This document shows, piece by piece, positions 30,381-60,073 of a stretch of DNA of 64,000 nucleotides (position 1 is its first letter; each line of letters opens with the position of its first letter). Where the stretch lies: the NCBI GenBank assembly GCA_965205265.1, contig CBDBGH010000003.1, positions 3,552,001 to 3,616,000 on the forward strand. The letters are read 5' to 3'. Source of the stretch: Alphaproteobacteria bacterium. GTDB lineage: Bacteria; Pseudomonadota; Alphaproteobacteria; Bin95. The notes below the pieces were generated by a model that did not search any database, was not told where the DNA came from, and worked only from the letters and a program-made list of their open reading frames with translations. Made by a program: the position numbers and the translations under genes.

Positions 30381-30946
30381 GAAATAAGAAATATTTCTTA
30401 GAAATAGCTTGACCTCGGAGCAGCCTGCCCCCAGATAGGGCGGGAGGACGCGGCATCCGGAGGTTGTGTCCCTTCGCGTCGGCGCCGGCGCGAAAAGGCC
30501 CCGATTCAGCCGACAGGTGAAGTGCGCCTTGCTCCCGGCTCGCGCGCGTGGGCGCATCCGGGCAATCAGGCGCGCGATTCGCGCCGCCGCGAAACGCGCG
30601 CGGACGGGCGCGGGGGCGCCGGCGCATATTACGCGCGAATAAGGGTCCCGCCGCTTCGGGGGGGCGGCGCCGACGCCGCCATCGGCAATGTTCGCCGCGT
30701 TCGGCGCGGCGGCGGAAGAAGGAACGGGGAGGAACGGAATGAAACCCGATGGAGGAACGACATGCGGGATTGTGGAGATGGAGCCGGGGCGGCGCAGCTC
30801 CCTGAACTCCTCGCCCCGCCAGGTTGAAAGGAGCCCTCCTGCAAGCGGGAGGGGAAGCCGATGGACGGGCAACCCTATGCAGAAAAGGACCGCAGGCTAT
30901 GCGCCCTGCGCATGCCGATCATGACATCGCATGACATGCCATGACG
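30381..30946 (+). repeat. Long dispersed non-coding element, copy 1 (contains double-hairpin copy C at 30661-30715)
   Basis: Collinear blocks shared with 59551-60073, including a 37/39-nt identical core at 30562-30600. Confidence 0.8.
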
Positions 30947-31065
30947 CGCCGCAGGGGCGGCCTCACCGGCGCAAGGGCGGAGCTCGTGCCGCGGGGTCCC
31001 GGAGCGGGTCCGGGGCAGGCTGCTGGGCAGCGTCCGGGATGGCGCCGGGAGAAGGGCGGCGGGCG

Positions 31066-31617
31066 CTATTCCCTCGGCGCGTATTTGGCGAGGATGCGCT
31101 GGAGGGTGCGGCGGTGCATGCGCAGGCGGCGCGCGGTCTCCGAGACATTGCGCCCGCACTGCTCGTAGATGCGCTGGATATGCTCCCAGCGCACGCGGTC
31201 GGGCGACATCGGCAGCTCCGGCGGTCCCGGCGGGTCCGCGCCCATATGCTTCAGCGCCGTCTCGATGGCGTCGGCGTCGGCCGGTTTCGGCAGGTAGTCG
31301 ATGGCGCCGACCTTCACCGCCGCCACCGCGGTCGCGATATTGCCGTAGCCGGTGAGGATGATCGCGCGGCTCTCGGGGCGCACGGCCTGCAGGTGCGAGA
31401 CCACATCGACGCCGCTGCCGTCGCCGAGCCGCAGATCGACCACGGCATAGTCGGGCGGGTCGATATCCACCGCCGCCTTGCCGTCCGCCACCGAGCCGGC
31501 CGTGCGCACGTCGAAGCCGCGCCGCTCCATCGCCCGCGCCAGGCGGTTCAGGAAGGGCGGGTCGTCATCGACCAGAAGGAGTGTGCCGGCGTCGCCGGAG
31601 CCTTGCTGTTCGTTCAT
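31066..31617 (-). CDS. regA: RegA/PrrA/ActR response regulator
   Basis: 'LTGYGNIATAVAAVK', 'MSPDRVRWEHIQRIYEQCGRNVSETARRLRMHRRTLQRILAK'. Confidence 0.96.
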   Translation of the reverse strand: MNEQQGSGDAGTLLLVDDDPPFLNRLARAMERRGFDVRTAGSVADGKAAVDIDPPDYAVVDLRLGDGSGVDVVSHLQAVRPESRAIILTGYGNIATAVAAVKVGAIDYLPKPADADAIETALKHMGADPPGPPELPMSPDRVRWEHIQRIYEQCGRNVSETARRLRMHRRTLQRILAKYAPRE

Positions 31618-31620
31618 CGC

Positions 31621-32913
31621 TCAATCACCCCTTGTCTCGGGCTCCAGTATCACGCGCGGCCACAGAACCTCAACCTCCGCGCCGCCCTGGGGGCGGTTGA
31701 GGAAGGCGACCTCGGCGCCCGTGCGCTCCAGCAGCGTGCGCGCAATAAAGATGCCGAGGCCCATATGGCCGTCGCTGCCCCGCCTTGTGGAAAGATAGGG
31801 CTCGCCGAGGCGGCCCAGCAGCGCCACCGGGAAGCCGGGCCCGTCGTCGGAGATCGTCACCGCCACCCGCTCGGCGTCCCAGACGATGGCGGCGACCACG
31901 CGGCTGCGGGCGAATTGCAGCGCGTTGGAGAGGATGTTGCCGAGGCCGTTCACCAGTTCCGGGCGGCGCTCCAGGGCCGGCTCGGCCGTGTCGTCGCGCG
32001 CGCGGCCGAGAATGGCGAAATCGACCCCCTCGCGCCGGTGCGGGTCCGCCATGCTCTCGATCAGCGCCGTCAAGGGCATGCGGAGATAGGAGGCCCCGCG
32101 CGCATCCGGCCGGCGCGACAGCTCCGTCAGGATCGCCTTGCAGCGCTCGGCCTGGCTCTTCAGCAGATGGGCGTCCTCGGCGAGCGGGCTGTCCGCCGGC
32201 ACTTCGCGCGCGAGTTCCGAGGCGATGACGGTGATGGTGGCGAGCGGGGTGCCGAGTTCATGCGCGGCCGCGGCCGCGAGCGTGCCAAGATCGGCGACGC
32301 GCTGCTCGCGCGCCAGCGCGTCCTGCGCGGCCGAGACCGCATCGGTCATCCGGCGCCGCTCGATCGCCACCTGCCCCACATAGACGGCGAGGAAGGCGAT
32401 GGCGGTGATGGTGGCGAACCATATGCCCAGCACCAGCTCCGCCGGCATGGCGGGCGGCGGCCCGTCCCAGGGCAGCGGCAAATGCCAGACCGACAGCGCG
32501 CTGGCGGCCGCCGCGGCCAGCACGACGAGCTTGATGCAGCTCGCTCGGGACAGCACCGACGCCGCCACCGTCACCGGCGCCAGCAGCAGGAGTGCGAACG
32601 GGTTCTGGAGCCCGCCCGTGAGGAACAGCAGCAGGGCGAGCTGCAGCGTGTCGAAGGCGAGGAAGCCGAAGGCCTGCGGCTCCGGCAGGCCGGCCCCGGC
32701 GCGATGGTGCAGGCTGGCATACAGGTTGACGACCGCCGACATCGCGATGACCGCCGCCGCCGCCTCGATCGGCAGCCGGTATCCGAAGCCGAAATGGACG
32801 ACCAGCACCGTGCCCGCCTGCCCCGCCACCGCGACCCAGCGAATCAGCACCAGCGTGCGCGTCTGCACGATGCCGGTCTCGCCCCGGGGCGGCGCGGGCT
32901 CTAAAACCTTCAT
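31621..32913 (-). CDS. regB: RegB/PrrB/ActS redox sensor histidine kinase
   Basis: Quinone-binding 'TGGLQNPF', H-box 'AAAAHELGTPL', 'DDGPGF', 'MGLGIFIA'. Confidence 0.95.
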   Translation of the reverse strand: MKVLEPAPPRGETGIVQTRTLVLIRWVAVAGQAGTVLVVHFGFGYRLPIEAAAAVIAMSAVVNLYASLHHRAGAGLPEPQAFGFLAFDTLQLALLLFLTGGLQNPFALLLLAPVTVAASVLSRASCIKLVVLAAAAASALSVWHLPLPWDGPPPAMPAELVLGIWFATITAIAFLAVYVGQVAIERRRMTDAVSAAQDALAREQRVADLGTLAAAAAHELGTPLATITVIASELAREVPADSPLAEDAHLLKSQAERCKAILTELSRRPDARGASYLRMPLTALIESMADPHRREGVDFAILGRARDDTAEPALERRPELVNGLGNILSNALQFARSRVVAAIVWDAERVAVTISDDGPGFPVALLGRLGEPYLSTRRGSDGHMGLGIFIARTLLERTGAEVAFLNRPQGGAEVEVLWPRVILEPETRGD

Positions 32914-32957
32914 GGGGCGCCGGGCGCTCCTGCCGGTGTCGGAGAGGGAAACATAGC

Positions 32958-33710
32958 ATGAGCGAATGGGCCGTCTCGGTGCGCGACCTCTCGAAGGAAT
33001 TCGGGACCGTGAAGGCCGTGGACGGGCTGACCTTCGATCTCGAGCATGGCGGCATCGTGGCGCTGCTCGGCGGCAACGGCGCCGGCAAGACGACCACCAT
33101 CGCCATGCTGCTCGGCCTGCTGCTGCCGACCTCCGGGACGGTGCATGCGCTCGGCGCCGACATGACCCGCGACCGCTACCGGGCGCTGGAGCGCATGAAC
33201 TTCTCCTCCCCCTATGTCGAGCTTCCGGGCCGGCTGACGGCCGAGGAGAACCTGCTGGTCTATGCGCGCCTCTACGGCGTGGCGCGGGCGGGCCGGCATG
33301 TGCGGGAGCTTGCCGAAGCGCTGGAGCTCACCCCGCTGCTGAAACAGCGGACCCGCACGCTCTCCGCCGGCCAGAAATCCCGCCTCGCGCTCGCCAAGGC
33401 GCTGGTGAACGAGCCGCAGCTCCTGCTGCTGGACGAGCCGACCGCCTCGCTCGACCCGGAGACCGCCGATTGGGCGCGCTCCTATCTCGCCGCTTATGTG
33501 CAGCGGACCGGCGCCACCATCCTGCTCGCCTCGCACAACATGCTGGAGGTGGAGCGGCTGTGCCGCGACGTGCTGATGATGAAGGACGGGCAGCTGGTGG
33601 ACCGGGGCGCCCCGGACGCGCTGATCGCCCGCTACGGGCGGCGCAACATGGAGGAGGTGTTCCTCGACATCGCCCGCGGCGGGGTTAGCTCTCGCCGGCG
33701 GCTTCCGTGA
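32958..33710 (+). CDS. ABC transporter ATP-binding protein
   Basis: 'GGNGAGKTT', 'LSAGQ', 'LLDEPTASLDP'; 3' end overlaps the convergent gene. Confidence 0.92.
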   Translation: MSEWAVSVRDLSKEFGTVKAVDGLTFDLEHGGIVALLGGNGAGKTTTIAMLLGLLLPTSGTVHALGADMTRDRYRALERMNFSSPYVELPGRLTAEENLLVYARLYGVARAGRHVRELAEALELTPLLKQRTRTLSAGQKSRLALAKALVNEPQLLLLDEPTASLDPETADWARSYLAAYVQRTGATILLASHNMLEVERLCRDVLMMKDGQLVDRGAPDALIARYGRRNMEEVFLDIARGGVSSRRRLP

Positions 33711-34803
33711 GCTGGGCGAGGCGGGTGCGGAACTTGTCGGTCTTGTAGTCGGTGACGCGGTAGGCCCAGCCGCCGGCGGTGGCGTTGATCTCCGCGACCT
33801 CCCCGGCCACCTCGTCGGGCGTCTTCAGCGCCATTTGCAGCGAGCCTTCGAGCTTGTCGGCATCCATCGTCTTCCGCGCATCCAGCAGGGGCTGGACGCG
33901 CGGGTCCGCCGTTCCGGGCGAGGCGGCCAGCACCACCCAGTAGTCGTCGTCCGCCTCGGCCATCTTCACCTCAACGACGAGGCCGTCGAAGGTCGCGAAC
34001 CGGCCGGAGACCAGCGGTTTCGAGAAGTCCACTTCGGCGGCCGGGCGCACGTCGTCGAAGATCAGGAAATCGAGCCAGCTCGTCAGCGGCGACAGCTCGT
34101 GGCTCGCCTTCGCCTTCCGTCCCTCGCCCGGCGGCTCTTCCAGGTTCCAGACGGTCTCCTCCGGCCCGACCTTCGAAACCGTGACCGTCTCGCCGTCGGC
34201 ATGGGTCAGGCGGGTGCGATGAAGGCGGCGCTGCTCCACGTTGCAGATATTGCGGTCGAGGAAGCGCGTGAGCAGCTGCACCGGCTGGAACCCGCCCCTG
34301 GCGAGCCAGGATTGCGCCTCGCCGCTCTTGCGCAGGAAGACGCCGCCGCCCGCCTCTTCCGGGCGCGCCAGGCCGACCAGCAGGTCCGCCACCGTCTCAT
34401 CGCCCGCTTTCGCCGCGATCCGGATGGAGAGCGCGCTCCTGTCTCCGAGGTCCTCCACGCGGATCTTCGGATAGAGCGCGGGCTTGGCAGTGCGCGGCTC
34501 GATCAGTTCGAGGCGCGCAAGGTCGTAAAGCATCCGGCTCAGCATCCTGAAGTCGGCGGGATAGCCGTGGCGCTGCACCACGCCCCAGCGCCCGTCCTCG
34601 CGCCGGGCCGACACGGTGCCGTCCGCCGTCGTGGAAACCTCGACGAAGTCGATGTCGTTCACGCGCTCCAGCAGGCCGGGATACAGCATGGCGCCGGCAG
34701 CCGGGTCGGCGCCCTGGACGCGCTCCTCGAGCAGAACCGCAGTGGCGGCTGCGGCCGTGACAGCCGTCAAAATCAACAGGATCAGGAAACTGCGTGCCTT
34801 CAT
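33685..34803 (-). CDS. DUF4340 domain protein
   Basis: N-terminal anchor, 'GYPAD', 'TFDGL', 'GWAY'; last gene of a Gld-like ABC operon. Confidence 0.85.
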   Translation of the reverse strand: MKARSFLILLILTAVTAAAATAVLLEERVQGADPAAGAMLYPGLLERVNDIDFVEVSTTADGTVSARREDGRWGVVQRHGYPADFRMLSRMLYDLARLELIEPRTAKPALYPKIRVEDLGDRSALSIRIAAKAGDETVADLLVGLARPEEAGGGVFLRKSGEAQSWLARGGFQPVQLLTRFLDRNICNVEQRRLHRTRLTHADGETVTVSKVGPEETVWNLEEPPGEGRKAKASHELSPLTSWLDFLIFDDVRPAAEVDFSKPLVSGRFATFDGLVVEVKMAEADDDYWVVLAASPGTADPRVQPLLDARKTMDADKLEGSLQMALKTPDEVAGEVAEINATAGGWAYRVTDYKTDKFRTRLAQLTEAAGES

Positions 34804-34811
34804 GCGCGTCG

Positions 34812-36788
34812 CTAAGCCTCCTGCACCGGGCGCCGACGGGCGCGCCGGGCAAAGGCGACCACCGCCGCAAACACGGCGACCAGCGCGGGAACGAGAGCGA
34901 TGTTGACGAGTTCGAGCCAGGAGGTCAGCGCCTCGACATCGCGGCGCAGGCGGTGCTGGACGTCGCGCAGCTCGCGGCGCAGGCGGATCACGTCGGCACG
35001 CATGGTCTTGAGCGAGTCGGCCTGGGAGGCCGTCAACACCACCTGCTCCTCGGCCGCGGAGTCCCTCTCGAGCCGGTTCAACCGTCCCATCGCCTCTTCC
35101 AGGCGGTCCAGCAATTCCTTTTCCTTCTTCCGGTGCTTGTTTTCCGCCTCGCGCCGGATTTTCTCCACCAGGGTGAAGGGGCGCTGGAAACTGCCGCGGG
35201 AGCGCAGCGACGAGAGATCGTCGCGGCCGGTCATGTTTTCGACCGCATTCAGGAACAAGGCCGCGTTGTCGGCTATCGCCTGGCCGGTAAGCCCGCCGTC
35301 GAACCGGTTCGGGACCATCCACATCGGGTCGGCGAGCATATCGACATCGGCCACCGCAATGACGTCCATCGGCGCCGCGGAGCGCGCCAGATGGGCCGCC
35401 TTCAGGGCCTCCCATGCGGCCCTGGCCTCTTCGTCGATCTCCGCCTCTTCGCCTTCGGCCGCCTGCTCCCCGCCGTTCTCCGGCTTCGGTTCCGGCGGTC
35501 CGTCCGGAAAGGCGCTCTCCACCTCGCCCGACAGTCTGGCGGCGAGCACCAGCGGCGCTTCGGCCGGCTTGAAGGCATGGAGCACCGCGACCGGATCGGC
35601 CGGTCCCTGGACAAGCGAGACCGGCACGGTGCCGCCGTCCTTCGAGGTGGTCACCAGCGGCGTCACCGTGGCCCCGGCGCTTTCGAGCGTCCGGATATGG
35701 CCGGGCGAAGCGATATTCAGCAGCGAGAGTTCGTTCGAAACCGAATCCCCGCGGGAAATGCCTCTCCTGTCGATGCCGAGCCACAGCGGATAGTCGATCG
35801 CCATCAACCGCGTCCTGGACCGGTCGGGCACCTGCACACGGCGCGCGAATCCGACATCGCCCGCCAGCTCGCCCGCCGGCATCTCAATGCCCCAGGCCTC
35901 GAACAGCCGCCCGAGATTGGAAGCGAACCCTCCGGGCGGCATGCCGCGGCGCAGCAGTTCCGGGTTCTGCGCCTCGCCTTCGGAGTGCGGGTCCACGAAG
36001 ACGAGCAGCTTGCCGCCGCGCAGCACGAATTGGTCGAGCGCGTAGAGGGTTTCGTCGGTGAGCCCTTTCGGATGCACGAGCACCACGACATCGACGCCCT
36101 CCGGCACGGACGTGGCCGTGCTGACGATCTGGCGCACATCCACAGACTTGAGCAGCAGGTTGTAGATCGTCCAGGCGTCGTTCCGGCCCCGGCCCGACTG
36201 GGACATGGGCGAGCCCGCAATCGGAAGGCCGGTAATCAGCCCGACGGCCGGCAATTCCGGGTTGGCGAGGCTATAGACGGCGCGGGCGATGTCGTATTCG
36301 AGGTCGCGCTCCCGGCTCTCGTCGAAAAACGGGATCAGCTCGACATCGTCGGTCGAATTGGTGCCGGCGAGGCCGAAGAACACGCGCTCGCCCGAACGGT
36401 CCACCGGCAGCCCCTGGAGGCCGAACGAGTCGGCCCGGTCTTCGGCGTCGGTGAACGGTTCGGGGTCGAATATCCGGAGGTCGATCTTGCCGTCGGAGTG
36501 GCTGGCGAACTCTTCCAGAAGGTCGCGCACATGGCGCGCATAAACACCCACCTGGGGGATTTCCCGCGCGATCCGGCTGGAGAAGTAGAAGCGGAGCACG
36601 ATCGGCTCGTCGATCTCCCGGACCACCCGCTTCGAGTCCTCGGCGAGCGTGAAGGCGCCCTCTTCGGTCAGGTCGAGGCGGGCGTGGCGCAACAGCCGGT
36701 CCGACAGGCTGACCCCGGCCACGAACAGAACCGCCAGCAGGACCAGCGCCAGCCTGGCGAACAGATTGCGTTGCCGGAAACGCTCCAT
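34812..36788 (-). CDS. GldG-family ABC-type uncharacterised transport auxiliary component
   Basis: 'RLDLTEE..FTL', 'DPEPFTDAED.A', 'LEYDI', 'LDQFVLRGG', 'RPFT'. Confidence 0.9.
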   Translation of the reverse strand: MERFRQRNLFARLALVLLAVLFVAGVSLSDRLLRHARLDLTEEGAFTLAEDSKRVVREIDEPIVLRFYFSSRIAREIPQVGVYARHVRDLLEEFASHSDGKIDLRIFDPEPFTDAEDRADSFGLQGLPVDRSGERVFFGLAGTNSTDDVELIPFFDESRERDLEYDIARAVYSLANPELPAVGLITGLPIAGSPMSQSGRGRNDAWTIYNLLLKSVDVRQIVSTATSVPEGVDVVVLVHPKGLTDETLYALDQFVLRGGKLLVFVDPHSEGEAQNPELLRRGMPPGGFASNLGRLFEAWGIEMPAGELAGDVGFARRVQVPDRSRTRLMAIDYPLWLGIDRRGISRGDSVSNELSLLNIASPGHIRTLESAGATVTPLVTTSKDGGTVPVSLVQGPADPVAVLHAFKPAEAPLVLAARLSGEVESAFPDGPPEPKPENGGEQAAEGEEAEIDEEARAAWEALKAAHLARSAAPMDVIAVADVDMLADPMWMVPNRFDGGLTGQAIADNAALFLNAVENMTGRDDLSSLRSRGSFQRPFTLVEKIRREAENKHRKKEKELLDRLEEAMGRLNRLERDSAAEEQVVLTASQADSLKTMRADVIRLRRELRDVQHRLRRDVEALTSWLELVNIALVPALVAVFAAVVAFARRARRRPVQEA

Positions 36789-36792
36789 CGCC

Positions 36793-37527
36793 TCAGTCCG
36801 CCTTCTTGAGGTCTACGGCGATGGCGGCCGCGGCCAGCCAGACGCCGATGACGAGCGCGTAATAGGCGAGGTCGCGCAGGTCTATCACGCCCTTGACGAT
36901 ATTGTTGAAGTGGCTGAGCAGGCTGAAGGAGGCGAGCGTCTCCAGGAACGCCGCCGGCACCGCGTCGCCGAGCACGGCCTGCAGGGCCCCCGCCCCCAGC
37001 ACGTTGAACAGGAAGCAGACGGTCACGGTGAGCACGAAGGCGATCACCTGGTTCCTGGTCAGCGCGGAAAGGCAGGAACCGATGGCCAGATAGGCGCCGG
37101 CCAGCAGGAAGGAGCCGATATAGCTGGCGGCGATGACCCCGTTGTCCGGCTCCCCGAGATAGTTGACGGTGAGCCAGATCGGGAATGTCAGCGCCAGCGC
37201 GAGCCCGGCGAACACCCAGGCCGCCAGGAACTTGCCCACCACGGCCGCAGCGGTCGAGACCGGGAGGGTCAGGAAGAGCTCGATGGTGCCCGTCTTGCGC
37301 TCCTCGGCCCAGAGCCGCATCGAGATCGCGGGCATGAAGAAGAGGTAGAGCCAGGGGTGCCACTGGAAGAAGGACAGCAGGTCCGCCCGCCCGCGCTCGA
37401 AGAACGAGCCGACATAGAAGGTCAGCGCCGCCGCCAGCGCCAGGAAGATGACGATGAACACATAGGCGACCGGCGTGATGAAGTAGCCGGCGAACTCGCG
37501 GCGGAAGATAGTGCCGATGCTAGCCAT
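36793..37527 (-). CDS. GldF-like ABC-2 permease
   Basis: 'REFAGYFITPVAYVF', 'MRLWAEERKTGTIELFLTLP', 'NQVIAF'. Confidence 0.92.
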   Translation of the reverse strand: MASIGTIFRREFAGYFITPVAYVFIVIFLALAAALTFYVGSFFERGRADLLSFFQWHPWLYLFFMPAISMRLWAEERKTGTIELFLTLPVSTAAAVVGKFLAAWVFAGLALALTFPIWLTVNYLGEPDNGVIAASYIGSFLLAGAYLAIGSCLSALTRNQVIAFVLTVTVCFLFNVLGAGALQAVLGDAVPAAFLETLASFSLLSHFNNIVKGVIDLRDLAYYALVIGVWLAAAAIAVDLKKAD

Positions 37528-38485
37528 GCTCCGCCGCCTCCGCATCCGGCTGCGTCATCCGCCGGAAAACGTCGTCGAGCGCTCCCGCCTCGGTCCGCAG
37601 GTCCTCGACCTCCCAGCCATGCGCCTGAACCAGCAGCCCGACATCCGCGAGGATGGGCGCGCCGTCGCCCGAGAGCGCCGTCAGGCTCACGGCGTCCGGG
37701 CCCGCCGGCTCGCGCCGGACCCCTGCCACACGGTCCAGGCCGTCGAGCGAGGCGGCGGCCGCATCGGCGAACCGGGCGGCAAGCGTCAGCGAAACGGCAT
37801 TGTGCAGCGGCGACAGCGCGGCAAGCTCCGCCGGCGCGGCGTCCGCCAGAAGCCGCCCGCCGGCAATGACCGCCGCGCGGGTGCAGACGGCGTCCACCTC
37901 CTCCAGGATATGGGTCGAGATGACGATGGCCTTCGAGGGACGGATTTCGCGGATGAGCGCGCGCATTTCGTGTTTCTGGTTCGGATCGAGCCCGTCCGTG
38001 GGCTCGTCAAGGATCAGCACCGGCGGGTCGTGCAGCAGCGCCTGCGCGAGGCCGACGCGGCGCTTGAACCCCTTGGACAGCGTGTCGATGGGCTGGGCGA
38101 GCACCTCGGCGAGGTCGGTGCGTTCGACCGCAAGCCCGATAGCGGTCCGGCCCTGCCGGCCGGAGAGGCCGCGCATGGCCGCCGCGAAGGCGAGGAACGC
38201 GCCGGCGGTCATGTCGCCATAGAGCGGAGCGCCTTCCGGCAGATAGCCTAGATTGCGCCGGGCCGGGATCGGATCGTCGGTTACATCGTGGCCGCAGATC
38301 GCCGCGCGGCCTTCGGTCGGGGCGAGGAACCCGGCGATCATCTTCATGGTCGTGGACTTGCCGGCGCCGTTGGGGCCGAGGAACCCCAGCACCTCGCCCG
38401 CGCCGACCTCGAGGTCCACGCGGTCCACGGCCACATGCGCATCGAAGCGCTTTGTCAGGCCCTCGGCGGCAACCAGCGCCAACAT
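37520..38485 (-). CDS. GldA-like ABC ATP-binding protein
   Basis: 'GPNGAGKSTT', 'LSKGFKRRVGLAQA', 'DEPTDGLDPNQ'. Confidence 0.93.
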   Translation of the reverse strand: MLALVAAEGLTKRFDAHVAVDRVDLEVGAGEVLGFLGPNGAGKSTTMKMIAGFLAPTEGRAAICGHDVTDDPIPARRNLGYLPEGAPLYGDMTAGAFLAFAAAMRGLSGRQGRTAIGLAVERTDLAEVLAQPIDTLSKGFKRRVGLAQALLHDPPVLILDEPTDGLDPNQKHEMRALIREIRPSKAIVISTHILEEVDAVCTRAAVIAGGRLLADAAPAELAALSPLHNAVSLTLAARFADAAAASLDGLDRVAGVRREPAGPDAVSLTALSGDGAPILADVGLLVQAHGWEVEDLRTEAGALDDVFRRMTQPDAEAAEHG

Positions 38486-38611
38486 TCCATCCCCAATCCC
38501 GGCGGCTGCTCCGGGCCGCTCCGGCCGGCGCGGGATATAGCCAACCGCACCGCGACGCGCCACTTAACTATTGGTAAGGTTCCGCCCCCCGAAGAACCGG
38601 ATCCCGATGTC

Positions 38612-52149: not shown

Positions 52150-52165
52150 GGAAAGGGAGGCGGAC

Positions 52166-52501: not shown

Positions 52502-52527
52502 GAGGCGCCGACAGCCTGCCGCCGGGG

Positions 52528-52556
52528 CTTGAACCGGGCGGCTGCAGCCCCGATAT
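52528..52556 (+). promoter_or_regulatory. RpoH (sigma32)-type promoter of yccA
   Basis: CTTGAA-N14-CCCCGATAT upstream of the Bax-inhibitor gene. Confidence 0.6.
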
Positions 52557-52593
52557 TGGCGGCCGGTACCGACAACGCTAACGGAGACCGCAA

Positions 52594-53355
52594 ATGGCCT
52601 TCGACAATCTGAGGACGACGGCGCGCGCCGCCGGCCGCAGCACGACCCGCACGGCGGAGCTCGATGCCGGCCTGCGCAGGCATATGCTCGGCATCTACAA
52701 CTACATGGCCTCGGGCGTGCTGCTCACGGGCATCGTCGCCTATCTGGTGTTCACCATGGCGGTGGCCCAGACGCCAAGCGGCCAGATGGCGCTGACGACC
52801 TTCGGGCAGGCGATCTACCTCTCGCCGCTCAAATGGGTGCTGATGCTCTCGCCGCTCGCCTTCATCCTAGTGCTGAGCTTCGGCGTCCACCGCCTGAGCA
52901 CGCCCGCAACGCAGGGCCTGTTCTGGGTGTTCTGCGCGCTCATGGGCGCCAGCATCAGCTCGATCTTCCTGCAATATACGGGCACCAGCATCGCGCGCGT
53001 GTTCTTCATTACCGCGGCCGCCTTCGCCGGGCTCAGCCTCTACGGCTACACCACGAAGCGCGACCTTTCGGGCATGCGCTCCTTCCTGGTGATGGGGCTG
53101 ATCGGCGTCATCATCGCCTCGCTGGTCAACCTCTTCCTCGCCTCGAGCGCGCTGCATTTCGCCGTGTCGGTGATCGGCGTGCTGGTGTTCGCCGGCTTCA
53201 CCGCCTACGACACGCAGCGCATCAAGAGCGAGTACTATCACGGCTACGACGCCGCCGTGATGGCCAAGAAGTCGGTGATGGACGCGCTGATGCTCTATCT
53301 GAGCTTCATCAACATGTTCCTGCTGCTGCTGAGCCTGTTCGGCAACAGGGAATAG
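52594..53355 (+). CDS. yccA: Bax inhibitor-1/YccA family membrane protein
   Basis: 'DAGLRRHML.IYNYM', 'YGYTTKRDL', 'TAYDTQRIK', 'LYLSFINMF'. Confidence 0.93.
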   Translation: MAFDNLRTTARAAGRSTTRTAELDAGLRRHMLGIYNYMASGVLLTGIVAYLVFTMAVAQTPSGQMALTTFGQAIYLSPLKWVLMLSPLAFILVLSFGVHRLSTPATQGLFWVFCALMGASISSIFLQYTGTSIARVFFITAAAFAGLSLYGYTTKRDLSGMRSFLVMGLIGVIIASLVNLFLASSALHFAVSVIGVLVFAGFTAYDTQRIKSEYYHGYDAAVMAKKSVMDALMLYLSFINMFLLLLSLFGNRE

Positions 53356-53356
53356 C

Positions 53357-53665
53357 TCAGAGGCCGATCGTCACCGTTCCCCCGTCGTCGATAACCGGGC
53401 GCTTCACCAGGGCCGGATGCGCGAGCATCAGGCCCCGCGCCCGGCCGGCGTCGAGTTCCGCCTTCTCGGCCTCGTCGAGCGCCCGCCAGGTCGTGCTGCG
53501 CCGGTTGAGCAGCGCCTCCCAGCCGAGCGCGCCGATCCAGCGGTCCAGCATCGCGGCGTCCAGCCCGTCCTCGCGCAGGTCGTGGAACCGGTGTTCACGA
53601 TCCCCCAGCGCCTTCCGCGCCTTGCGGCAGGCATCGCAGCTCTTCAGGCCATAGACGGTCAGCAT
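53357..53665 (-). CDS. ArsC/Spx (YffB-like) protein
   Basis: 'YGLKSCDACRKA', 'LLNRRSTTWR', 'KRPV'. Confidence 0.92.
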   Translation of the reverse strand: MLTVYGLKSCDACRKARKALGDREHRFHDLREDGLDAAMLDRWIGALGWEALLNRRSTTWRALDEAEKAELDAGRARGLMLAHPALVKRPVIDDGGTVTIGL

Positions 53666-53767
53666 GGGCGCGCATTCCTCGGTCTTGCGGGTCCGCTATA
53701 GTCGCATGGCCGCGTTCCGGAGGGGAAGCGCCGCCGGCCATATATGACGCTTCCGGGGAGACCGTTC

Positions 53768-54649
53768 ATGCAGGGTCCTGAGAGCCATTCCTATTTCTCG
53801 CAGCGGCTCAGGCTGCACTATGTCGATTGGGGCAACCCGGGCGCGCCGCCGCTGCTGCTGATCCACGGGGGCCGCGACCATTGCCGCAATTGGGACTGGG
53901 TGGCCGAGGCGCTCCGCGACGACTACCGCATCGTCGCGCCGGACCTGCGCGGCCATGGCGACAGCGCCTGGTTCGTCGGAGGCGCCTATGCGATGGCGGA
54001 CTATGTCTATGACATCGCGCAGCTCGTCCACCAGAAGCGGCTCGCCCCGGTGACCGTCATCGGCCACTCGCTCGGCGGCTCCATCGCGCTCCACTATGCG
54101 GGCGTCTATCCGGAGACGGTGAAGGCGCTGGTCGCCATCGAGGGGCTCGGCCCCTCGCCCGCGCAGATCGAGGCGCGCAAGGACCGGGCCATCGACGACC
54201 GGCTCAGGGAATGGATCGACACGCAGCGCGGCCTCTCCGGCCGGCTGCCGCGCCGCTACCCGACTCTGGAGGACGCCTACCGGCGCATGCAGGAGGCCAA
54301 CCCCCGCCTGACCGAGGCCCAGGCCCGGCATCTCACCGTCCACGGCGCCAACCAGAACGAGGACGGCACCTATAGCTGGAAGTTCGACAATTACAGCCGC
54401 GCGGACCGCCCGGTCGGCATCTATCCGGAGGAGAGCTTCCGGCTCTGGTCCCGGATAAGCTGTCCGACCCTGCTGGTGCGCGGCCTCGAAAGCTGGGTCG
54501 GCGACCCGGAGGAGGACGGCCGCGCCGCGCATTTCGGCAATGCCCGCTTCGTCGATGTCGCCGGCGCCGGCCACTGGGTGCATCACGACCGGCTGGACCA
54601 TTTCCTCGGCCTCGTGCGCGGCTTCCTCGCCGAAGCGGAGGCGCGTTAG
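53768..54649 (+). CDS. Alpha/beta hydrolase
   Basis: 'IHGGRDHCRNWD', 'DLRGHGDS', 'GHSLGG', 'GHWVHHD'; start could be 53744. Confidence 0.92.
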   Translation: MQGPESHSYFSQRLRLHYVDWGNPGAPPLLLIHGGRDHCRNWDWVAEALRDDYRIVAPDLRGHGDSAWFVGGAYAMADYVYDIAQLVHQKRLAPVTVIGHSLGGSIALHYAGVYPETVKALVAIEGLGPSPAQIEARKDRAIDDRLREWIDTQRGLSGRLPRRYPTLEDAYRRMQEANPRLTEAQARHLTVHGANQNEDGTYSWKFDNYSRADRPVGIYPEESFRLWSRISCPTLLVRGLESWVGDPEEDGRAAHFGNARFVDVAGAGHWVHHDRLDHFLGLVRGFLAEAEAR

Positions 54650-54673
54650 GGAATCGTGCTATAGCCTGACGGT

Positions 54674-56860
54674 ATGGACGATGCCCTGCCCGCCGCGACC
54701 GCCGACGATCCTCCCTGGCTCGCCGGGCTGAACCCCCCGCAGCGCGAGGCGGTCGAGACGCTGGAAGGGCCGCTTCTCGTGCTCTCCGGCGCCGGCACCG
54801 GCAAGACGCGGGTGCTGACCGCGAGGCTGGCGCTGCTGCTGGCGATGAAGCGCGCCTGGCCCAGCCAGATTCTCGCCGTCACCTTCACCAACCGGGCGGC
54901 GAACGAAATGCGCGAGCGGGTGGAGGCGCTGATCGGCGAGATGAGCGCCGGCCTCTGGCTCGGCACCTTCCACGCGCTCGGCCTGCGCATATTGCGCCGC
55001 CATCCCGAGCTGGCGGGCCTCAGGCCCTCCTTCTCGATCCTCGACCCGGACGACCAGGAACGGCTTCTCAAACAAGTGCTGGCGGACGCGAATGTGGATG
55101 CGAAGCACTGGCCCGCGCGCCAGCTTTCGACCATCGTCCAGCGCTGGAAGGACAAGGGGTGGCGCCCGGAGCAGGTGACGGCCCACGAGGCGGGCAGCTT
55201 CGCCAATGGCCGCGCCCCGGCGCTTTACGAGGCCTATCAGGAACGGCTTGCCGACCTCAACGCCGTCGATTTCGGCGACCTGCTGCTCCACAACCTGACG
55301 ATCTTCCAGCGCGATACGGAGGTGCTGGCGCAATACCAGGAGCGGTTCCGCTACATCCTCGTGGACGAATACCAGGACACCAACATCGCCCAGTATCTCT
55401 GGCTTCGCCTGCTCGCCCAGCGGCGCCGCAATATCTGCTGCGTCGGCGACGACGACCAGTCCATCTACGGCTGGCGCGGGGCGGAGGTCGGCAACATCCT
55501 GCGCTTCGAGAACGACTTCGAGGGCGCGAAGATCGTCCGGCTGGAGCAGAACTACCGCTCGACCGGCGATATTCTGGGAGCCGCCTCGGGGCTGATCGCC
55601 AACAATCGAGGGCGACTCGGCAAGACGCTCTGGACGACCCGCGAGGACTCCCGCCCGATCGCCGTCCACACCGTTCCCGACGGAGAGGCGGAGGCGCGGC
55701 TCGTCGGCGGGGAAATCGAGGCGCTGCAACGCGCCGGCGCCGGCCTCGGACAGATGGCGGTGCTGGTGCGCGCGTCCTTCCAGATGCGCGCCTTCGAGGA
55801 GCGCTTCGTCGCGCTCGGCCTCAACTACCGGGTCATAGGCGGCCCGCGCTTCTATGAGCGCCGCGAGGTGAGAGACGCTATCGCCTATCTGCGCGCCGTG
55901 CTGTTCCCCGAAGACGACCTCGCCTTCGAGCGCATCGTCAACCTGCCGAAACGCGGCATCGGCGACGCCACCCTGCAACCGGTGCGCCGCCTCGCCCGCG
56001 CCGGGCGGCTTCCGTTAGGCGAAGCGGCGCGCCGGCTGGTCGAGACGGAAGAACTGAAGGCCCGCGCGCGCAATGCGCTCGCGGGCTTTTGCCGCGCCAT
56101 CGACGGCTGGCGCGCCCGGCTCGGCAGCGAGCCCCATGCGGACCTCGCGGACGCGATCCTCGAAGAGAGCGGCTACCGGGAGATGTGGCGGAAGGACAAG
56201 GGGCTCGACGCCCCCGGCCGGCTGGAGAATCTGGGCGAACTCGTACAGCAGATCGCCCGGTTCGACACCCTCGAGGAGTTTCTGGAGCATGTCGCCCTGG
56301 TGATGGAGGCCGAAGGCGGCAGCGAGGCGGAAAGCATCTCCCTGATGACGCTTCACGGCGCCAAGGGGCTCGAATTCGACATCGTGTTCCTGCCGGGCTG
56401 GGAGGAGGGCCTGTTCCCCCACCAGCGCGCCCTTGCAGAGAACGGGCTTGCCGGGCTGGAGGAGGAACGCCGCCTCGCCTATGTCGGCATCACCCGCGCG
56501 CGCCGCCATGTCACCGTCTCGTCCGCCATGAGCCGCATGGTCATGGGACGATGGCTCAGTCCGCTGCCGTCCCGCTTCATCGACGAGCTGCCGGACGAGC
56601 ATGTGGAGCGCCAGCTGGAGAATGCGTTCGGCGAGGCTCCCGCGTGGCGCTATGGCGCGGGTAGCGGGCAGGTGATCGACGCCCCGGCCTGGGAAGTGAA
56701 GGAGCGTGCTGACCGCATCGGCCAATTCGAGGTCGGCCAGCGCGTGTTCCACGAGAAATTCGGCTATGGAGCTGTACGCGCCACCGACCGGGAAAAGCTC
56801 ACTGTCGCCTTCGAAACCGGCGACAAGAAAGTGATCGGCAGCTTCGTCAGGCCCGTCTGA
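54674..56860 (+). CDS. uvrD: ATP-dependent DNA helicase UvrD/PcrA
   Basis: 'GAGTGKTRVL', 'VDEYQDTN', 'VGDDDQSIYGWRGA', 'KGLEF', 'EEERRLAYVGITRA'. Confidence 0.95.
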   Translation: MDDALPAATADDPPWLAGLNPPQREAVETLEGPLLVLSGAGTGKTRVLTARLALLLAMKRAWPSQILAVTFTNRAANEMRERVEALIGEMSAGLWLGTFHALGLRILRRHPELAGLRPSFSILDPDDQERLLKQVLADANVDAKHWPARQLSTIVQRWKDKGWRPEQVTAHEAGSFANGRAPALYEAYQERLADLNAVDFGDLLLHNLTIFQRDTEVLAQYQERFRYILVDEYQDTNIAQYLWLRLLAQRRRNICCVGDDDQSIYGWRGAEVGNILRFENDFEGAKIVRLEQNYRSTGDILGAASGLIANNRGRLGKTLWTTREDSRPIAVHTVPDGEAEARLVGGEIEALQRAGAGLGQMAVLVRASFQMRAFEERFVALGLNYRVIGGPRFYERREVRDAIAYLRAVLFPEDDLAFERIVNLPKRGIGDATLQPVRRLARAGRLPLGEAARRLVETEELKARARNALAGFCRAIDGWRARLGSEPHADLADAILEESGYREMWRKDKGLDAPGRLENLGELVQQIARFDTLEEFLEHVALVMEAEGGSEAESISLMTLHGAKGLEFDIVFLPGWEEGLFPHQRALAENGLAGLEEERRLAYVGITRARRHVTVSSAMSRMVMGRWLSPLPSRFIDELPDEHVERQLENAFGEAPAWRYGAGSGQVIDAPAWEVKERADRIGQFEVGQRVFHEKFGYGAVRATDREKLTVAFETGDKKVIGSFVRPV

Positions 56861-56878
56861 GTGAGGACAACACCGCCC

Positions 56879-57664
56879 ATGACCCAATCGCCCGTTCTGG
56901 AACGCCGCGAAGGCGCGGTCGCCGTGGTGACCCTGAACCGCCCGGAGGCGCTGAACGCGCTCAACATCGAAATGCGGGACCTGCTGCCGCGCGTGCTGAA
57001 CGGCCTGAACGGCGACGAGGCGGCGCGCGCGGTCGTGCTGACCGGGGCGGGCGAGCGCGCCTTCTCCGCCGGGCAGGACCTGAACGACTCGGCGGGCTTC
57101 GACGAAAAGACCGTGCAGGAGCATTTCCTGCATCTGGGCGCGCTCTACCAGTCCGTGCGCGCGCTGGAGAAGCCCGTCGTCGTGGCGCTGAACGGGCTCG
57201 CTGCCGGCTTCGGCCTGCAGACCGCGCTGCATGCCGATATCCGCATCGCGCATGCAGGCGTGCGCATGGGCCAGCCGGAGGTGCGCGCCGGCATTCCGAG
57301 CACGGTCGGCCCCTTCATCATCGAGCGCGCGGTCGGCCATGCCCGCGCGGTGGAGCTTTCGCTCACCGGCAGGCTGCTGGATGCCGAAACCTGCCTCGCC
57401 TGGGGCATGGTCAACGAGATCGTGCCGCGCGAGCGCGTGATGGAGCGGGCGATGGAGCTTGCCGGGGAACTGGCCGCCCTGCCGCCGCTTGCCGTTCGCC
57501 TCACCAAGCGCCGCCTGCTGGAGCGCACCCAGGCGGAATACGATGAGACCGTCCAGGCCGCGATGCGCTACCAGCAGGCCGCCTATCTGGACGGCGAACC
57601 GCAGCGCGTCGCCGCCGCCTTCTTCGCAGAGCGGGCGGCGCGGCGCAGCAGGGAGACGGCGTGA
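56879..57664 (+). CDS. Enoyl-CoA hydratase/isomerase family protein
   Basis: 'TLNRPEALNA', 'AFSAGQDL', 'KPVVVALNG', 'GQPE'. Confidence 0.92.
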   Translation: MTQSPVLERREGAVAVVTLNRPEALNALNIEMRDLLPRVLNGLNGDEAARAVVLTGAGERAFSAGQDLNDSAGFDEKTVQEHFLHLGALYQSVRALEKPVVVALNGLAAGFGLQTALHADIRIAHAGVRMGQPEVRAGIPSTVGPFIIERAVGHARAVELSLTGRLLDAETCLAWGMVNEIVPRERVMERAMELAGELAALPPLAVRLTKRRLLERTQAEYDETVQAAMRYQQAAYLDGEPQRVAAAFFAERAARRSRETA

Positions 57665-58479
57665 TGGGAACGGGACGGGTCGGGACGGTCGAGCGGGACG
57701 GGGCGCGGACCGTCTATGAGGTCCACGGCGGTGCGGGAGCACCGGCGCTCCTCTTCGGCCATGCCCAGATCCTCTCCCGCGCCCAGTATGCGCCGCAGGT
57801 CGAGGCATTCGCCGACCGCTACCGCGTGATCGCGCTGGATTTCCGGGGCCACGGCGAGAGCCCCGTCAGCCCCGCGCCCTACCGCATGGAGGACCTGGCG
57901 CAGGATGCGGTTGCGGTTCTGGACGCGGAGGGCGTCGAGCACGCGCACTATCTCGGCTCCTCGCTCGGCGGCATGGTCGGCTTCGCGCTCGCGCTGGAGC
58001 ACGCCCCCCGCCTTGCCAGCGTGACATTCCTTGCCACCCAGGGCGTGCTGCCAGCGGCCAATGGCGAGCGGATTCGCCGGACGGCCGCCCGCCTCGCGGC
58101 CCTCGGCGACAGCATGGCGCCGGCGGCGCAAGAGATCATGGCGCGCTATACGACCGAAGCCTGGCGCGCGGAAAACCCGGAGAGCCACGCCCGCCTGATC
58201 GGGATCGCGTCCGCCAACCCTCTGGCGGGCTACGAGCATTCCGGCGGCGCCATCACGGCCATGGACTATGACGGCCGGCTCGGCGGGATCGACACGCCCG
58301 CCCTGGTCGTCGCCGGCGAACATGACATGCCGACCCCGCCGGAGCGGATGGCGCTCTACCGCGACAAGATCCGGGGCGCGGAAATGGCGGTGATCGAGGG
58401 TGCCGCCCATTTCCCCAACTGGGACCGGGCCGAGGCGTTCAACCGCGTCTATGGAGACTTCCTCGCCCGCTTGGCCTGA
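57661..58479 (+). CDS. Alpha/beta hydrolase (PcaD-like)
   Basis: 'DFRGHGES', 'GSSLGG', 'GEHD..TPP', 'AAHFPN'. Confidence 0.88.
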   Translation: MMGTGRVGTVERDGARTVYEVHGGAGAPALLFGHAQILSRAQYAPQVEAFADRYRVIALDFRGHGESPVSPAPYRMEDLAQDAVAVLDAEGVEHAHYLGSSLGGMVGFALALEHAPRLASVTFLATQGVLPAANGERIRRTAARLAALGDSMAPAAQEIMARYTTEAWRAENPESHARLIGIASANPLAGYEHSGGAITAMDYDGRLGGIDTPALVVAGEHDMPTPPERMALYRDKIRGAEMAVIEGAAHFPNWDRAEAFNRVYGDFLARLA

Positions 58480-58579
58480 CGGCCTCCCCTCCCTGAGGGC
58501 TACCGGATTCGCACATCTCCGGCGACCTCGAATCGCATGGCCCCCTGGTCCCCCCGCCATCTTTTATGAGCCGCAGCCC

Positions 58580-58687
58580 GGCACCGCTGGCCCCGGCGTC
58601 CAGCAAGGCTTCCGCCAATTCCGCATGGCCCTTGCGCGCCGCGCCGTGCAGCGGGGTCCGGCCGTGCTTGTTCCGGGCATCTCCCAC
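58580..58687 (-). pseudogene. Ankyrin-repeat gene fragment
   Basis: 'DARNKHGRTPLHGAARKGHAELAEALLDAGA' is one canonical ankyrin repeat; flanks degenerate and a REP cluster lies immediately upstream. Confidence 0.75.
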
Positions 58688-58699
58688 CGAGCGGCCGGA

Positions 58700-59460
58700 T
58701 GGATACCCGGACTTGTTCCATTGCTGTCCGGTTCAGCCATTGGGTGAGGCTGAACGGGAGTCCGCCGGGGGTTTCGGGGGCGCGCGGCGTCTGCGATCCG
58801 CCCCTTGCCCGTGAGGCTCGAACGCCCCCTTCGACAGGCTCAGGGCAGGCTCTTCCGTCATGCCCGGACTTGTTCCGGGTATCCATACGGCCGCCCGGCG
58901 GAGCCGCTTGAGAGAGATACCCGGAACAAGTCCGGGTATGACGATATGGGGGTCGGGCATGACGACTTGGGGGCCGGGCCGCCGGGCGTCGATCCGGGTC
59001 CCGATCCCGCCGAACCCCTCGAAACCCGGTTGAATCCAGGCCATGCGCCCTGCCCGCAAATCCTGAACCGGACAGCCATCGGGGGGAGCCGAACGGGGTG
59101 TCGGGAGCGCACCGCGTCTGCGATCCGCCCCTTGCCCGTGAGGCTCGAACGCCCTCCTTCGACAAGCTCAGGACAGGCTTCTCCGTCATACCCGGACTTG
59201 TTCCGGGTATCCACACGGCCGCCCGGCTGAGCCGCTTGAGAGAGATACCCGGAACAAGTCCGGGTATGACGATATGGGGCGGGTATGACGATGTGAGGGT
59301 CGGGACGCCGGGCGTCGATCCGGGTCCCGATCCCGCCGAACCCCTCGAAACCCGATTGAATCCAAGCCATGCGCCCTGCCCGCAAATCCTGAACCGGACA
59401 GCAATGGAACAAGTCCGGGTATGACGAAAGAGCTTGCCCTGAGCCTGCCGAAGGGGGGCG
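58700..59460. repeat. Composite REP/BIME-like cluster with a 327-bp-period tandem duplication and outer inverted repeats
   Basis: Direct copies 58787-59076 and 59114-59402; GTCAT(G/A)CCCGGACTTGTTCCGGGTATC palindromic pairs; CCTTCGACA(G/A)GCTCAGG units; outer inverted repeat 58702-58737 vs 59389-59424. Confidence 0.9.
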
Positions 59461-59550
59461 TTCGGACATGACGGGGGTGTTCATGCATGACAAATCCGAA
59501 AGCGATTGCCCTGCCGCAAAAGCCTCGGCCAACACGCTTTCCGATCCTGC

Positions 59551-60073
59551 AAATATGAAATATTCCCGATAATTTCGATTTCGTTCTTTTTCATGACTTG
59601 ACATCTGGCGAATTGTGGTATGATGGTCCCCAGGGAAGCGGACTCCGGAGCCGCTTCCCCGGTGCTGCGCGGCCGAGCGGCGCCACTTTCTGAAAACCCG
59701 TGAGAAGCCGACGGGAGACGTGCGTCCTCTGCCTCGCGCGCGCAATCAGGCGCGCGAACCGCGCCGCCGCGAAACGCGCGCCGGCGCGCGCAGGGGCACC
59801 CGCGCAGGATACGCGCGAAACAGGGACCCGCTCCCCGTCGGGAAAGGAGAGACGATGACCGCAACCGACCCCCGACCCGAACTGGCGGCAATGCTGGCCG
59901 AAAGGCCGGCGCCGGCAGATGGCAGAGCACGCTCCGTCCGGGTTGAAACGGCAGGTCGGGAGCCTGCTCCCTCCCGCTGGGCGGGAGAGAAGGTCGAAGG
60001 GTGGACGGCTTCATGCCCGAACCGGCTACAGCATATGAACCCCGCGCATGCAAAACATGACATCTCAGGACAT
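59551..60073 (+). repeat. Long dispersed non-coding element, copy 2
   Basis: Collinear with 30381-30946; core at 59742-59780. Confidence 0.8.
59598..59624 (+). promoter_or_regulatory. Sigma70-like promoter at the 5' end of element copy 2
   Basis: AT-rich upstream tract, TTGACA (59598), extended -10 TG-G-TATGAT (59616-59624); spacer only 15 nt. Confidence 0.55.

Follow-up and report, generated by a model that had tools for sequence, protein, structure and literature searches.

Several classes of dispersed sequence in bacteria offer points of comparison for the repeats described here. Repetitive extragenic palindromes (REP) and bacterial interspersed mosaic elements (BIME), with REP-associated tyrosine transposases (RAYT), and IS200/IS605-derived palindromes occur at high copy number between genes, have GC-rich hairpins and lack inverted terminal repeats; some insertion sequences (IS) insert into REPs. 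Integron gene cassettes carry no promoter of their own and are arrayed next to an integrase, and their attC site is an imperfect palindrome. Phage small terminases (TerS) recognize pac or cos repeats, with pac sites often in or beside terS, and TerS genes of satellites (PICI/SaPI) redirect packaging. A published account of the Correia repeat-enclosed elements of Neisseria describes more than 120 copies in N. gonorrhoeae; the elements are short and intergenic, bear promoters of sigma-70-like type, vary between genomes in whether they are present and do not encode a transposase (PMC10969869). We analyzed a 64,000-nt stretch of an alphaproteobacterial chromosome (the window; C3:3552001-3616000) that contains two copies of a directional repeat ending in phased CATGAC heptamers. 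We put at roughly 55% the probability that this CATGAC family is a lineage-specific, high-copy, selfish or occasionally mobile transcription-unit cassette that has multiplied in one uncultured alphaproteobacterial genus. [quoted passage not shown]

The source genome, G000, comprises 5.70 Mb in three contigs (68% G+C, 98.98% complete). The assembly is listed with 7.28% contamination, and contig C3 accounts for 5.46 Mb. A sequence-only reading of the window had proposed two collinear, diverged copies of a noncoding element with the same order of blocks. The correspondence between the two is confirmed: copy 1 (30370-30946) and copy 2 (59537-60072) are collinear, have a mean column identity of 72% (MAFFT, 30340-31000 versus 59500-60180) and agree at 37 of 39 positions of a core that begins at 30562 and 59742, a likeness far above chance. 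The number two applies to the window, which contains exactly these copies, and not to the genome, which contains about 73. Iterated nhmmer searches of the whole genome recovered 73 cores (E 2e-7 to 3e-24) along with 72 tails, every one of them on C3, the chromosome contig, and BLASTN with either copy against its own genome gave dozens of matches. Thus, the suspicion that a multicopy element had spread through the genome was justified, and it extends across the genus; conserved islands separated by variable spacers are likewise seen family-wide. Most copies are 420-600 nt long, and the mean site density is one per ~75 kb. A third copy lies 4 kb past the end of the window, on the minus strand (C3:3619839-3620306). 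There are no cores between 4.63 and 5.41 Mb of C3, and identical copy pairs at 360/4632927, 42818/5413810 and 1474842/1738793 point to large duplications or assembly repeats.

Cores and tails are coupled. A CATGA(C/G)-N4-CATGA(C/G) pair was present 202-1179 nt 3′ of the core on the same strand for 66 of 73 cores, compared with 1.1% of 10,000 random positions. Genome-wide, 144 phased CATGAS-N4-CATGAS pairs fall into 91 clusters, 74 of which have a same-strand core upstream; about one phased pair would be expected by chance according to our own composition estimate, a figure that has no tool behind it. Placement was assessed with a crude GC3-based gene caller covering 64% of the genome. A co-oriented gene lies downstream of only 31 of 72 units; 25 lie between convergent and 11 between divergent genes, gap types that each make up ~26% of all intergenic gaps. 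Such positions are more in keeping with a selfish insert that is tolerated than with recruitment of a promoter for neighboring genes.

From 5′ to 3′, a unit consists of an AT-rich stretch, TTGACA-type and −10-type motifs, a GC-rich leader, a Shine-Dalgarno-like site, an open reading frame (ORF) and the CATGAC tail. At the left end, an A(T)TTGTTC block precedes the AT-rich stretch, which often contains the palindrome GAAATATTTC; blocks of both kinds, TTGTTC and GAAATATTTC, are found repeatedly among the copies. In the 45 nt leading up to the −35 motif, A+T content is 68%, compared with 32% for the genome. A spacer, 15 nt in 34 copies and 16 nt in 19, separates TTGACA or a near variant from a downstream hexamer, which is TATGAT/TACAAT or resembles CTATAT. 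A TTG(A/C)nn-N14-17 pair with a −10-like motif is kept in 55 of 71 distinct upstream regions, and 36 of these have a TGn extension. A generic sigma-70 scan (spacers 16-18, TATAAT-type) found no promoter in copy 1 or copy 2; such a scan misses these motif pairs because of the 15-nt spacer (copy 2) and the non-TATAAT hexamers. The 5′ promoter of the sequence-only reading was therefore not recovered by the scan, and it is from conservation of the motif pair that we infer a promoter in each unit. Judged by eye, neither a LexA box (GTTC-N7-GTTC) nor a CtrA box (TTAA-N7-TTAA) accounts for the sequences of the AT-rich stretch.

The leader is GC-rich and 230-280 nt long. It opens with a hairpin, P1 (GAAGCGG...CCGCTTC), followed by the palindrome CGCGCCGGCGCG, then CCCCGATTCAGCCGAC and, in the subfamily of copy 1, an optional extra hairpin. 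Next come the nearly invariant GCAATCAGGCGCGCGAACCGCGCCGCCGCGAAACG (the ~40-nt core), ACGCGCGAA..AGGG and a last hairpin, CCCGCCGC...GCGGCGGG. Behind the leader come a GGAG/AAGGA-type site and an ATG. The description of the element as noncoding is not supported as it stands, as a Shine-Dalgarno-like site and an ORF stand behind every leader and intact members encode conserved proteins. For the same reasons, a 5′ leader is a better reading of the conserved GC-rich portion than an independent noncoding RNA.

We examined P1 in gapless alignments anchored on the loop motif, and hence not fitted to the stem. Pairing held in 85% of cells in one set (16 sequences) and 80% in another (14 sequences), compared with 36-60% when the partner was slid. 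Two-sided changes occurred at 5 of 10 and 4 of 10 pairs in the two sets. For most measures, the observed values were reached by 0-22 of 500 shuffles, the exception being further pair types in the second set (445 of 500). The center of the loop is always a 4-nt palindrome. G-U cells (25) were not in significant excess over A-C cells (14; p = 0.11), and the rows are interrelated. Folding z-scores for 24 leaders of ~250 nt, with 30 dinucleotide shuffles each, were weak on both the plus (−1.27) and the minus strand (−1.47).

Several approaches to a fold of the whole leader were set aside. The RNAalifold consensus of 67 leaders had just 17 pairs, mostly invariant, at −13.7 kcal/mol; consensus folds of single subfamilies were mutually inconsistent; and mutual information with average product correction (APC) was dominated by the subfamily signal. 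Averaged pair probabilities never exceeded 0.33, and a brute-force helix scan of the (GC)n-rich leader yielded many mutually exclusive GC helices. At gathering score, Rfam found only rRNA and tRNA in the whole window; with E up to 10, both copies gave chance-level scores of 11-20 bits against cut-offs of 36-73, in agreement with the earlier impression that the element matches no recognized family. Of the structured noncoding RNA first proposed, the hairpin P1 with its compensatory changes remains; no stable global fold or strand asymmetry was found. Support for RNA structure is thin and confined to P1, and the palindromes of the leader may act at the DNA level.

The ORFs behind the leader fall into three classes. 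The shortest units (~270-300 nt from core to tail end) carry a 31-codon ORF, MPKxRSxxNRxEYPxxMPEQxTAYAPxACxS, that is in one frame in several units. A short duplication shifts the frame in some short units, giving a 41-codon form in which the tail then reads ...HADHDIS. The longer members encode one of two proteins. Type A is an acidic protein of 197 residues with two GSEDEYHYF...TPEF..W...ERR repeats, present in nine copies with 91-100% amino-acid identity. Type B has 308 residues and seven intact copies at 92-100% amino-acid identity (one at C3:4474805-4475731), plus several deleted ones. It had been suggested that copies enclosing a transposase might reveal an autonomous parent; the long members encode type A or type B instead, and neither contains a transposase domain. 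The view that the small ORFs lack a conserved frame also needs amending for copy 2, as the ATG at 59855 is the conserved start of type A, of which ~17 codons are left.

The N terminus of type B is predicted to be a small-terminase-type helix-turn-helix (HTH). It matches Pfam Terminase_2 (PF03592) at 50.6 bits (cut-off 26.1; E 4e-13) over residues 11-85 and profile positions 2-73 of 141, a match that spans the DNA-binding half of type B only, and PHROG 51 (terminase small subunit) with E 5.5e-14. Apart from the seven type B copies, nothing in the genome matches PF03592. Searches of NCBIfam and PADLOC gave no match for type B; type A matched nothing in Pfam, NCBIfam or PADLOC and had only a weak PHROG match of unknown function. 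Among 8,000 candidates scored, 346 proteins derived from metagenome-assembled genomes (MAGs) were relatives of type B and 155 were relatives of type A (E ≤ 0.001), with invariant columns over the whole length of both proteins. Named relatives are labeled 'terminase small subunit' or 'hypothetical protein', from 'MAG: Alphaproteobacteria bacterium'. Type B found no match in 50,697 phage records (tblastn), and in IMG/VR it matched four viral contigs only, at 28-36% identity in the HTH region. GTA_TIM, the HK97-type capsid (PF05065) and Terminase_6N are absent from the genome; these were the three marker families searched, and other large-terminase families were not.

The tail is laid out as (C/T)ATGCCCGAA..TATGCGCC..GCATGCAGAn, behind which lie CATGACA repeats; in many copies a short GC hairpin follows, and after it another set of repeats. 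From one CATGA motif to the next, the distance is exactly 10 nt in 111 of 141 cases, 9 nt in one and 11 nt in none, and 32-33 nt separates the two groups. As 10 is a multiple of 3 plus 1, successive repeats set ATGA, in which TGA overlaps ATG, in successive reading frames; ATGA covers three frames in 36 of 66 tails and two frames in the other 30. ORFs of unrelated families end inside the repeats, with HDI(S/P/A) or HDKT encoded within CATGAC: ..TFHDIP is the end of type B, ..PPHDKT that of some type A relatives and ..HDIS that of the 41-codon ORFs. Ten nucleotides is also one helical turn, and the phasing suggests that a protein binds along a single face of the DNA, with the type B HTH protein as the most evident candidate. 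A protein-binding platform, one of the two roles first envisaged for the element, is plausible for the tail. This and the frame-coverage reading are not exclusive, and the data fit both. Codon-position entropy of a 15-codon mini-ORF in the tail is mixed, with several codons most variable at the third position.

The repeats also affect what is called as a gene. A 657-codon ORF on the plus strand (30931-32904) starts at an ATG in the CATGAC repeats of copy 1; we consider it spurious, as it overlaps minus-strand genes for a response regulator and a histidine kinase. In the MAG L041, the frame of an ORF judged from its sequence to be cysteinyl-tRNA synthetase-like (4974-6458) begins MTFHD in the repeats. 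Another repeat, beginning GGGGCTTATATGGATAGGTTGACAACAGGTTTGGGAGGC, interrupts at least five tails directly after CATGA (C3:980262, 3619632, 4009081, 1205633 and 1589172) and has the look of an insertion sequence with the CATGAC repeat as its target.

The family is narrowly distributed. With 251 nt of copy 2 as the BLAST query, 14 of 16 other genomes in the same GTDB genus gave matches (at least ~19 in most of them), as did one of eight genomes of two sister genera; none of 16 from other families did. A strict core pattern, which has 57 matches in G000 and 23 in the relative G007, occurred in 11 of 37 genomes of the order, all from the same genus. Public records that contain the core pattern are titled 'MAG: Alphaproteobacteria bacterium', except for two with other labels. 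Small shares of the sampled words of the window were found in sequencing runs labeled as sponge and coral metagenomes.

Comparison with relatives reveals presence and absence at individual loci. In G005, the equivalent of window 27500-28332 is joined straight to 31047 onward, and 2.7 kb (28333-31046, including copy 1) is absent. This gap is flanked by two convergent genes, and the junction shows AGGG-type microhomology only. The right neighbor of copy 1 is the minus-strand response regulator gene with its histidine kinase, and the segment missing from G005 also holds an ORF for a HepT-like RNase (29193-29918, Pfam E 4.6e-10) and ORFs without a family. The same gap has different contents in G007, G010 and L060, each including a family member. 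In L041, two inserts bracket an isochorismatase-like gene: ~460 nt, comprising promoter, leader and the start of a mini-ORF, lies between the upstream stop codon and the gene's own ribosome site, and 58 nt with three CATGACA repeats lies 3′ of the stop codon. In G000, this gene is preceded by a 22-nt spacer and has neither insert. At other loci, with L062 and L058 among the junctions, the entire intergenic region is replaced between conserved flanks. Copies in other genomes were assigned a syntenic G000 copy in 24 cases; in 10, this was also the best match, at 76-100% identity, and one of these 10 belongs to a 99.9%-identical genome. For the 24 syntenically assigned copies, elements were generally less alike than flanks (mostly 83-95%), and the remaining loci carried a different subfamily. 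These comparisons are evidence for gain, loss and turnover of the element.

In the explanation that we favor, a selfish or occasionally mobile transcription-unit cassette, each unit would be transcribed from its own promoter. Its three phased repeats would stop any upstream ORF, whichever its frame, because ATGA occurs in all three frames. The CATGAC heptamers would be the likely binding sites of the type B HTH protein, which could act in trans on copies without an ORF. The family would then behave as a cassette of this kind and not as a regulator of neighboring genes.

Several observations weigh against this explanation. We found no clean single unit opposite an empty site, as both indels are composite, and no target duplication at the G005, L041, L062 or L058 junctions, none of which is a clean single-unit insertion. 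No terminal inverted repeats were found in either window copy or in one intact type A unit; the inverted pairs there are all internal and GC-rich, and none links the AT-rich left end with the CATGAC right end. The genome has no match to Y1_Tnp (PF01797), for which a control search was positive in 6 of 14 reference genomes, and just one 40-residue fragment of Y2_Tnp. The sequence-only reading had likewise seen no transposase and no terminal inverted repeats, and the repeat and Y1/Y2 searches bear this out. No transposase, integrase or reverse transcriptase was found linked to any copy. Many loci keep the element across species and the promoter motifs are conserved, both of which suit a selected host function as well as a selfish element. 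Binding of type B to the heptamers is itself conjectural: in its AlphaFold model, the HTH (residues ~10-60) has a pLDDT of ~90, and the mean over the whole protein is 63. For expression, contigs from three metatranscriptomes and from a further run whose kind is unrecorded were mapped at 88% likeness, and contig mapping reveals neither transcript ends nor strand. Summed depth on the leader was 132-745 in RNA contigs of run X18, compared with 12.3 on the neighboring gene, and ~25,800-123,800 in the run of unrecorded kind, taken as DNA, compared with 288. The ratio of leader to neighbor is lower in the metatranscriptome than in the presumed DNA run, and these depths include multicopy summation and possibly DNA carry-over.

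A family that serves its host is an unlikely alternative. Here, ~70 co-regulated small genes or leaders, perhaps a regulon of mini-proteins together with the two larger paralog families, would share a promoter, a regulatory 5′ untranslated region and a 3′ control site, having spread long ago by duplication and been kept by selection without further mobility. Such a history would account for the loci common to different species and for the conservation of promoter motifs, P1 and core while the spacers drift. It would also suit the single frame in which the 31-codon mini-ORF recurs in several short units, the third-position variability of several codons in the tail mini-ORF, and an upstream CUCC in subfamily 2 that can pair with the GGAG of the ribosome site. 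However, the same tail is read in different frames by the 31-codon form and the 41-codon form ending HADHDIS, near-identical copies of types A and B point to recent copying, and different subfamilies occupy the same locus in different genomes. Deleted or truncated members, including copy 2, are common, and placement is biased toward the ends of convergent genes. We regard as very unlikely a family of trans-acting structured small RNAs, in which the leader itself would be the product. Such a family would show what is seen at the 5′ end, where a conserved hairpin with compensatory changes comes directly behind a promoter-like start, and would also suit the ~40-nt core, which hardly varies, and the high copy number. 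However, a ribosome site and an ORF always follow the leader, and neither window copy has a terminator-like site 3′ of it on the plus strand. The weak, strand-equal folding z-scores, the lack of a significant G-U excess or an Rfam match, and consensus folds that disagree between subfamilies also argue against it.

Two further explanations draw on the systems introduced above. Type B could bind the iterons at ~70 dispersed pac-like sites and steer the packaging motor of a phage or gene transfer agent onto host DNA, with phage interference, or transduction of the element and its flanks, as the effect. Its Terminase_2-kind HTH, the helical-turn-phased repeats that overlap the 3′ end of the type B gene, the average of one site per ~75 kb, and the whole-intergenic swaps between conserved flanks, which flank-homology recombination of imported DNA would produce, all speak for this. 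The resemblance to phage TerS, in the N-terminal HTH and in short phased direct repeats at or in the 3′ end of the gene, is offset by the fact that no copy has a large terminase, a capsid or any further phage gene next to it (genome-wide, the three families were searched). In addition, each of the seven type B genes comes with a promoter and leader of its own, and the gene is missing from ~60 other repeat sites. The missing GTA_TIM, PF05065 and Terminase_6N matches, the lack of phage relatives beyond the four viral contigs with HTH similarity, the rigid 10-nt spacing, never 11, and the promoter and leader, which packaging sites leave unexplained, make this highly improbable. Of all the explanations considered, we give least credence to an ordinary MITE or the solo end of a known insertion sequence. 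Correia elements and other promoter-bearing MITEs are likewise short, intergenic and high-copy, vary in presence from genome to genome and lack a transposase, and the CATGAC units match Correia elements in copy number, intergenic placement, size (420-600 nt) and carriage of a promoter (PMC10969869). That account defines MITEs by terminal inverted repeats (PMC10969869), which are absent from the three units tested. Compared with Correia elements, its units are directional, with two ends unlike each other (AT-rich promoter and repeats); they carry a ribosome site and an ORF, in some cases for the 197- or 308-residue protein; and neither a parent insertion sequence bearing a transposase nor a match for copy 2 in 72,556 plasmid records (blastn) was found. 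A 599-residue ORF within the L035 unit, considered as a possible parent, reads from its translation as an unrelated IS4-like transposase inserted there.

Other described systems resemble the family in part. Like REPs, the units are high-copy, intergenic, rich in GC hairpins and devoid of inverted terminal repeats, and an apparently unrelated insertion sequence inserts specifically into the CATGAC repeat. Unlike REP/RAYT systems, the genome has no Y1 gene, and the units are 10-30 times the length of a REP, directional, promoter-led and ORF-bearing. A second, REP-like repeat family, with the palindrome GTCATGCCCGGACTTGTTCCGGGCATGAC / GGAACAAGTCCGGGTATGACG, occurs at window ~59400-59430, C3:1186600-1186750 and C3:2012209-2012417; it contains ATGAC as well and occupies intergenic regions from which the main element is absent. 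As in integron cassettes, a variable ORF lies between conserved noncoding modules with repeats resembling a recombination site at the 3′ end, and in L041 a cellular gene is bracketed. In contrast to those cassettes, the units have their own promoter, are scattered, end in direct repeats and show no association with an integrase.

A bolder version of the mobile cassette, which we consider quite unlikely, is a new class of selfish element without a transposase of known kind. A small-terminase-like HTH protein made by a few master copies would recognize the phased CATGAC iterons of ~70 cassettes. Spread could proceed through the hijacked packaging motor of incoming phages, with flank-homology recombination carrying the element into new cells, or through some recombination reaction at the iterons. 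Cellular genes might be captured between the two modules, as in L041, and the three-frame ATGA tail would serve as a universal adaptor that stops an upstream ORF and may restart translation downstream.

The two window copies themselves are best read as decayed or shortened members of the family. Copy 1 belongs to the mini-ORF class with the extra leader hairpin, and all of its features lie on the plus strand. Its AT-rich upstream stretch (30370-30408) contains GGTTC (30373-30377) and the 14-nt palindrome AAGAAATATTTCTT (30387-30400). The promoter-like pair, recognized by conservation (30409-30436), consists of TTGACC (30409-30414), a 16-nt spacer and CCAGAT (30431-30436), and transcription would start near 30443. 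P1 (30446-30471) is formed by GGACGCGGC, the loop ATCCGGAG and GTTGTGTCC, with every pair standard or G-U; the alignment set for this form is the one with 85% of cells paired and two-sided changes at 5 of 10 pairs. The leader core (30544-30652; nhmmer C3:3582544-3582652, E 1.5e-23) includes GCAATCAGGCGCGCGATTCGCGCCGCCGCGAAACGCGCG from 30562. A predicted 61-codon mini-ORF (30739-30924) follows GGAGGAACGGA, and its last 15 codons, MQKRTAGYAPCACRS (30877-30924), form the predicted conserved tail mini-ORF, with a TGA stop within the first CATGAC. The tail (30873-30946) has three repeats in 10-nt phase: CATGACA at 30920, CATGACA at 30930 and CATGACG at 30940.

Copy 2 belongs to the type A subfamily, of which 16 copies in the genome are 84-90% identical over ~370 nt, from the left end to window 59916 (BLASTN). 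An internal deletion has removed most of its type A gene. Its features, too, are on the plus strand. The left end (59537-59597), where subfamily-2 similarity begins, reads CTTTCCGAT...ATGAAATATTCCCGATAATTTCGATTTCGTTC and contains an TTTCCGAT-like motif twice. The promoter-like pair (59598-59624) comprises TTGACA (59598-59603), a 15-nt spacer and an extended −10 motif, TGGTATGAT (59616-59624), with a probable transcription start near 59631. P1 (59633-59659; GGGAAGCGG / ACTCCGGAG / CCGCTTCCC) is 92% complementary. The leader core (59724-59832; nhmmer C3:3611724-3611832, E 3.2e-24) includes GCAATCAGG... from 59742. Behind GGAAAGGAGAGACG lies the remnant of the type A ORF (59855-60154), whose first ~17 codons, MTATDPRPELAAMLAER, match the 197-residue protein before the frame is lost. 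The tail (60009-60072) holds the 15-codon mini-ORF MPEPATAYEPRACKT (60013-60060), CATGACA (60056-60062) and a degenerate CAGGACA (60066-60072), and thus lacks an intact phased CATGAS pair.

The surroundings of copy 2 contain further repeats. Just 5′ of it, GGACATGACGGGGGTGTTCATGCATGACAAATCC (59465-59498), which also occurs upstream of the copy at C3:3620181, looks like the decayed CATGAC tail of another unit and hence like a trace of head-to-tail neighbors. Tandem units are present at C3:42538-43014 and also in L024 and L045. The DNA 5′ of copy 2 (58617-59435) is multicopy, with a summed contig depth 20-400 times that of the neighboring gene in run X1; parts of it match many places in relatives, and synteny with G005, G007 and G012 breaks there. 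Elsewhere in the window, a complete rRNA operon on the minus strand (8385-13749) comprises 16S, two tRNAs, 23S, 5S and a further tRNA.

The family appears to be undescribed: we found nothing like it in the literature searched, which did not extend to supplements, or in Rfam, Pfam, NCBIfam, PADLOC and the phage and plasmid collections, although this is not proof of absence. It has neither inverted ends nor a transposase, the hallmarks by which mobile DNA is usually recognized and masked, and its CATGAC tail can give rise to spurious long ORFs and false start codons in annotation, as in the ORF at 30931 and the MTFHD start in L041. If our explanation is correct, one uncultured genus bears tens to hundreds of copies of a directional repeat, and with each landing the site would gain a promoter-like start with its leader, then a ribosome site and, at the 3′ end, a tail that offers stops and starts in three frames. 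This would bear on the genome plasticity of the lineage. For the biology of mobile elements, it would mean a family whose sole element-encoded DNA-binding protein is, by prediction, a relative of small terminases.

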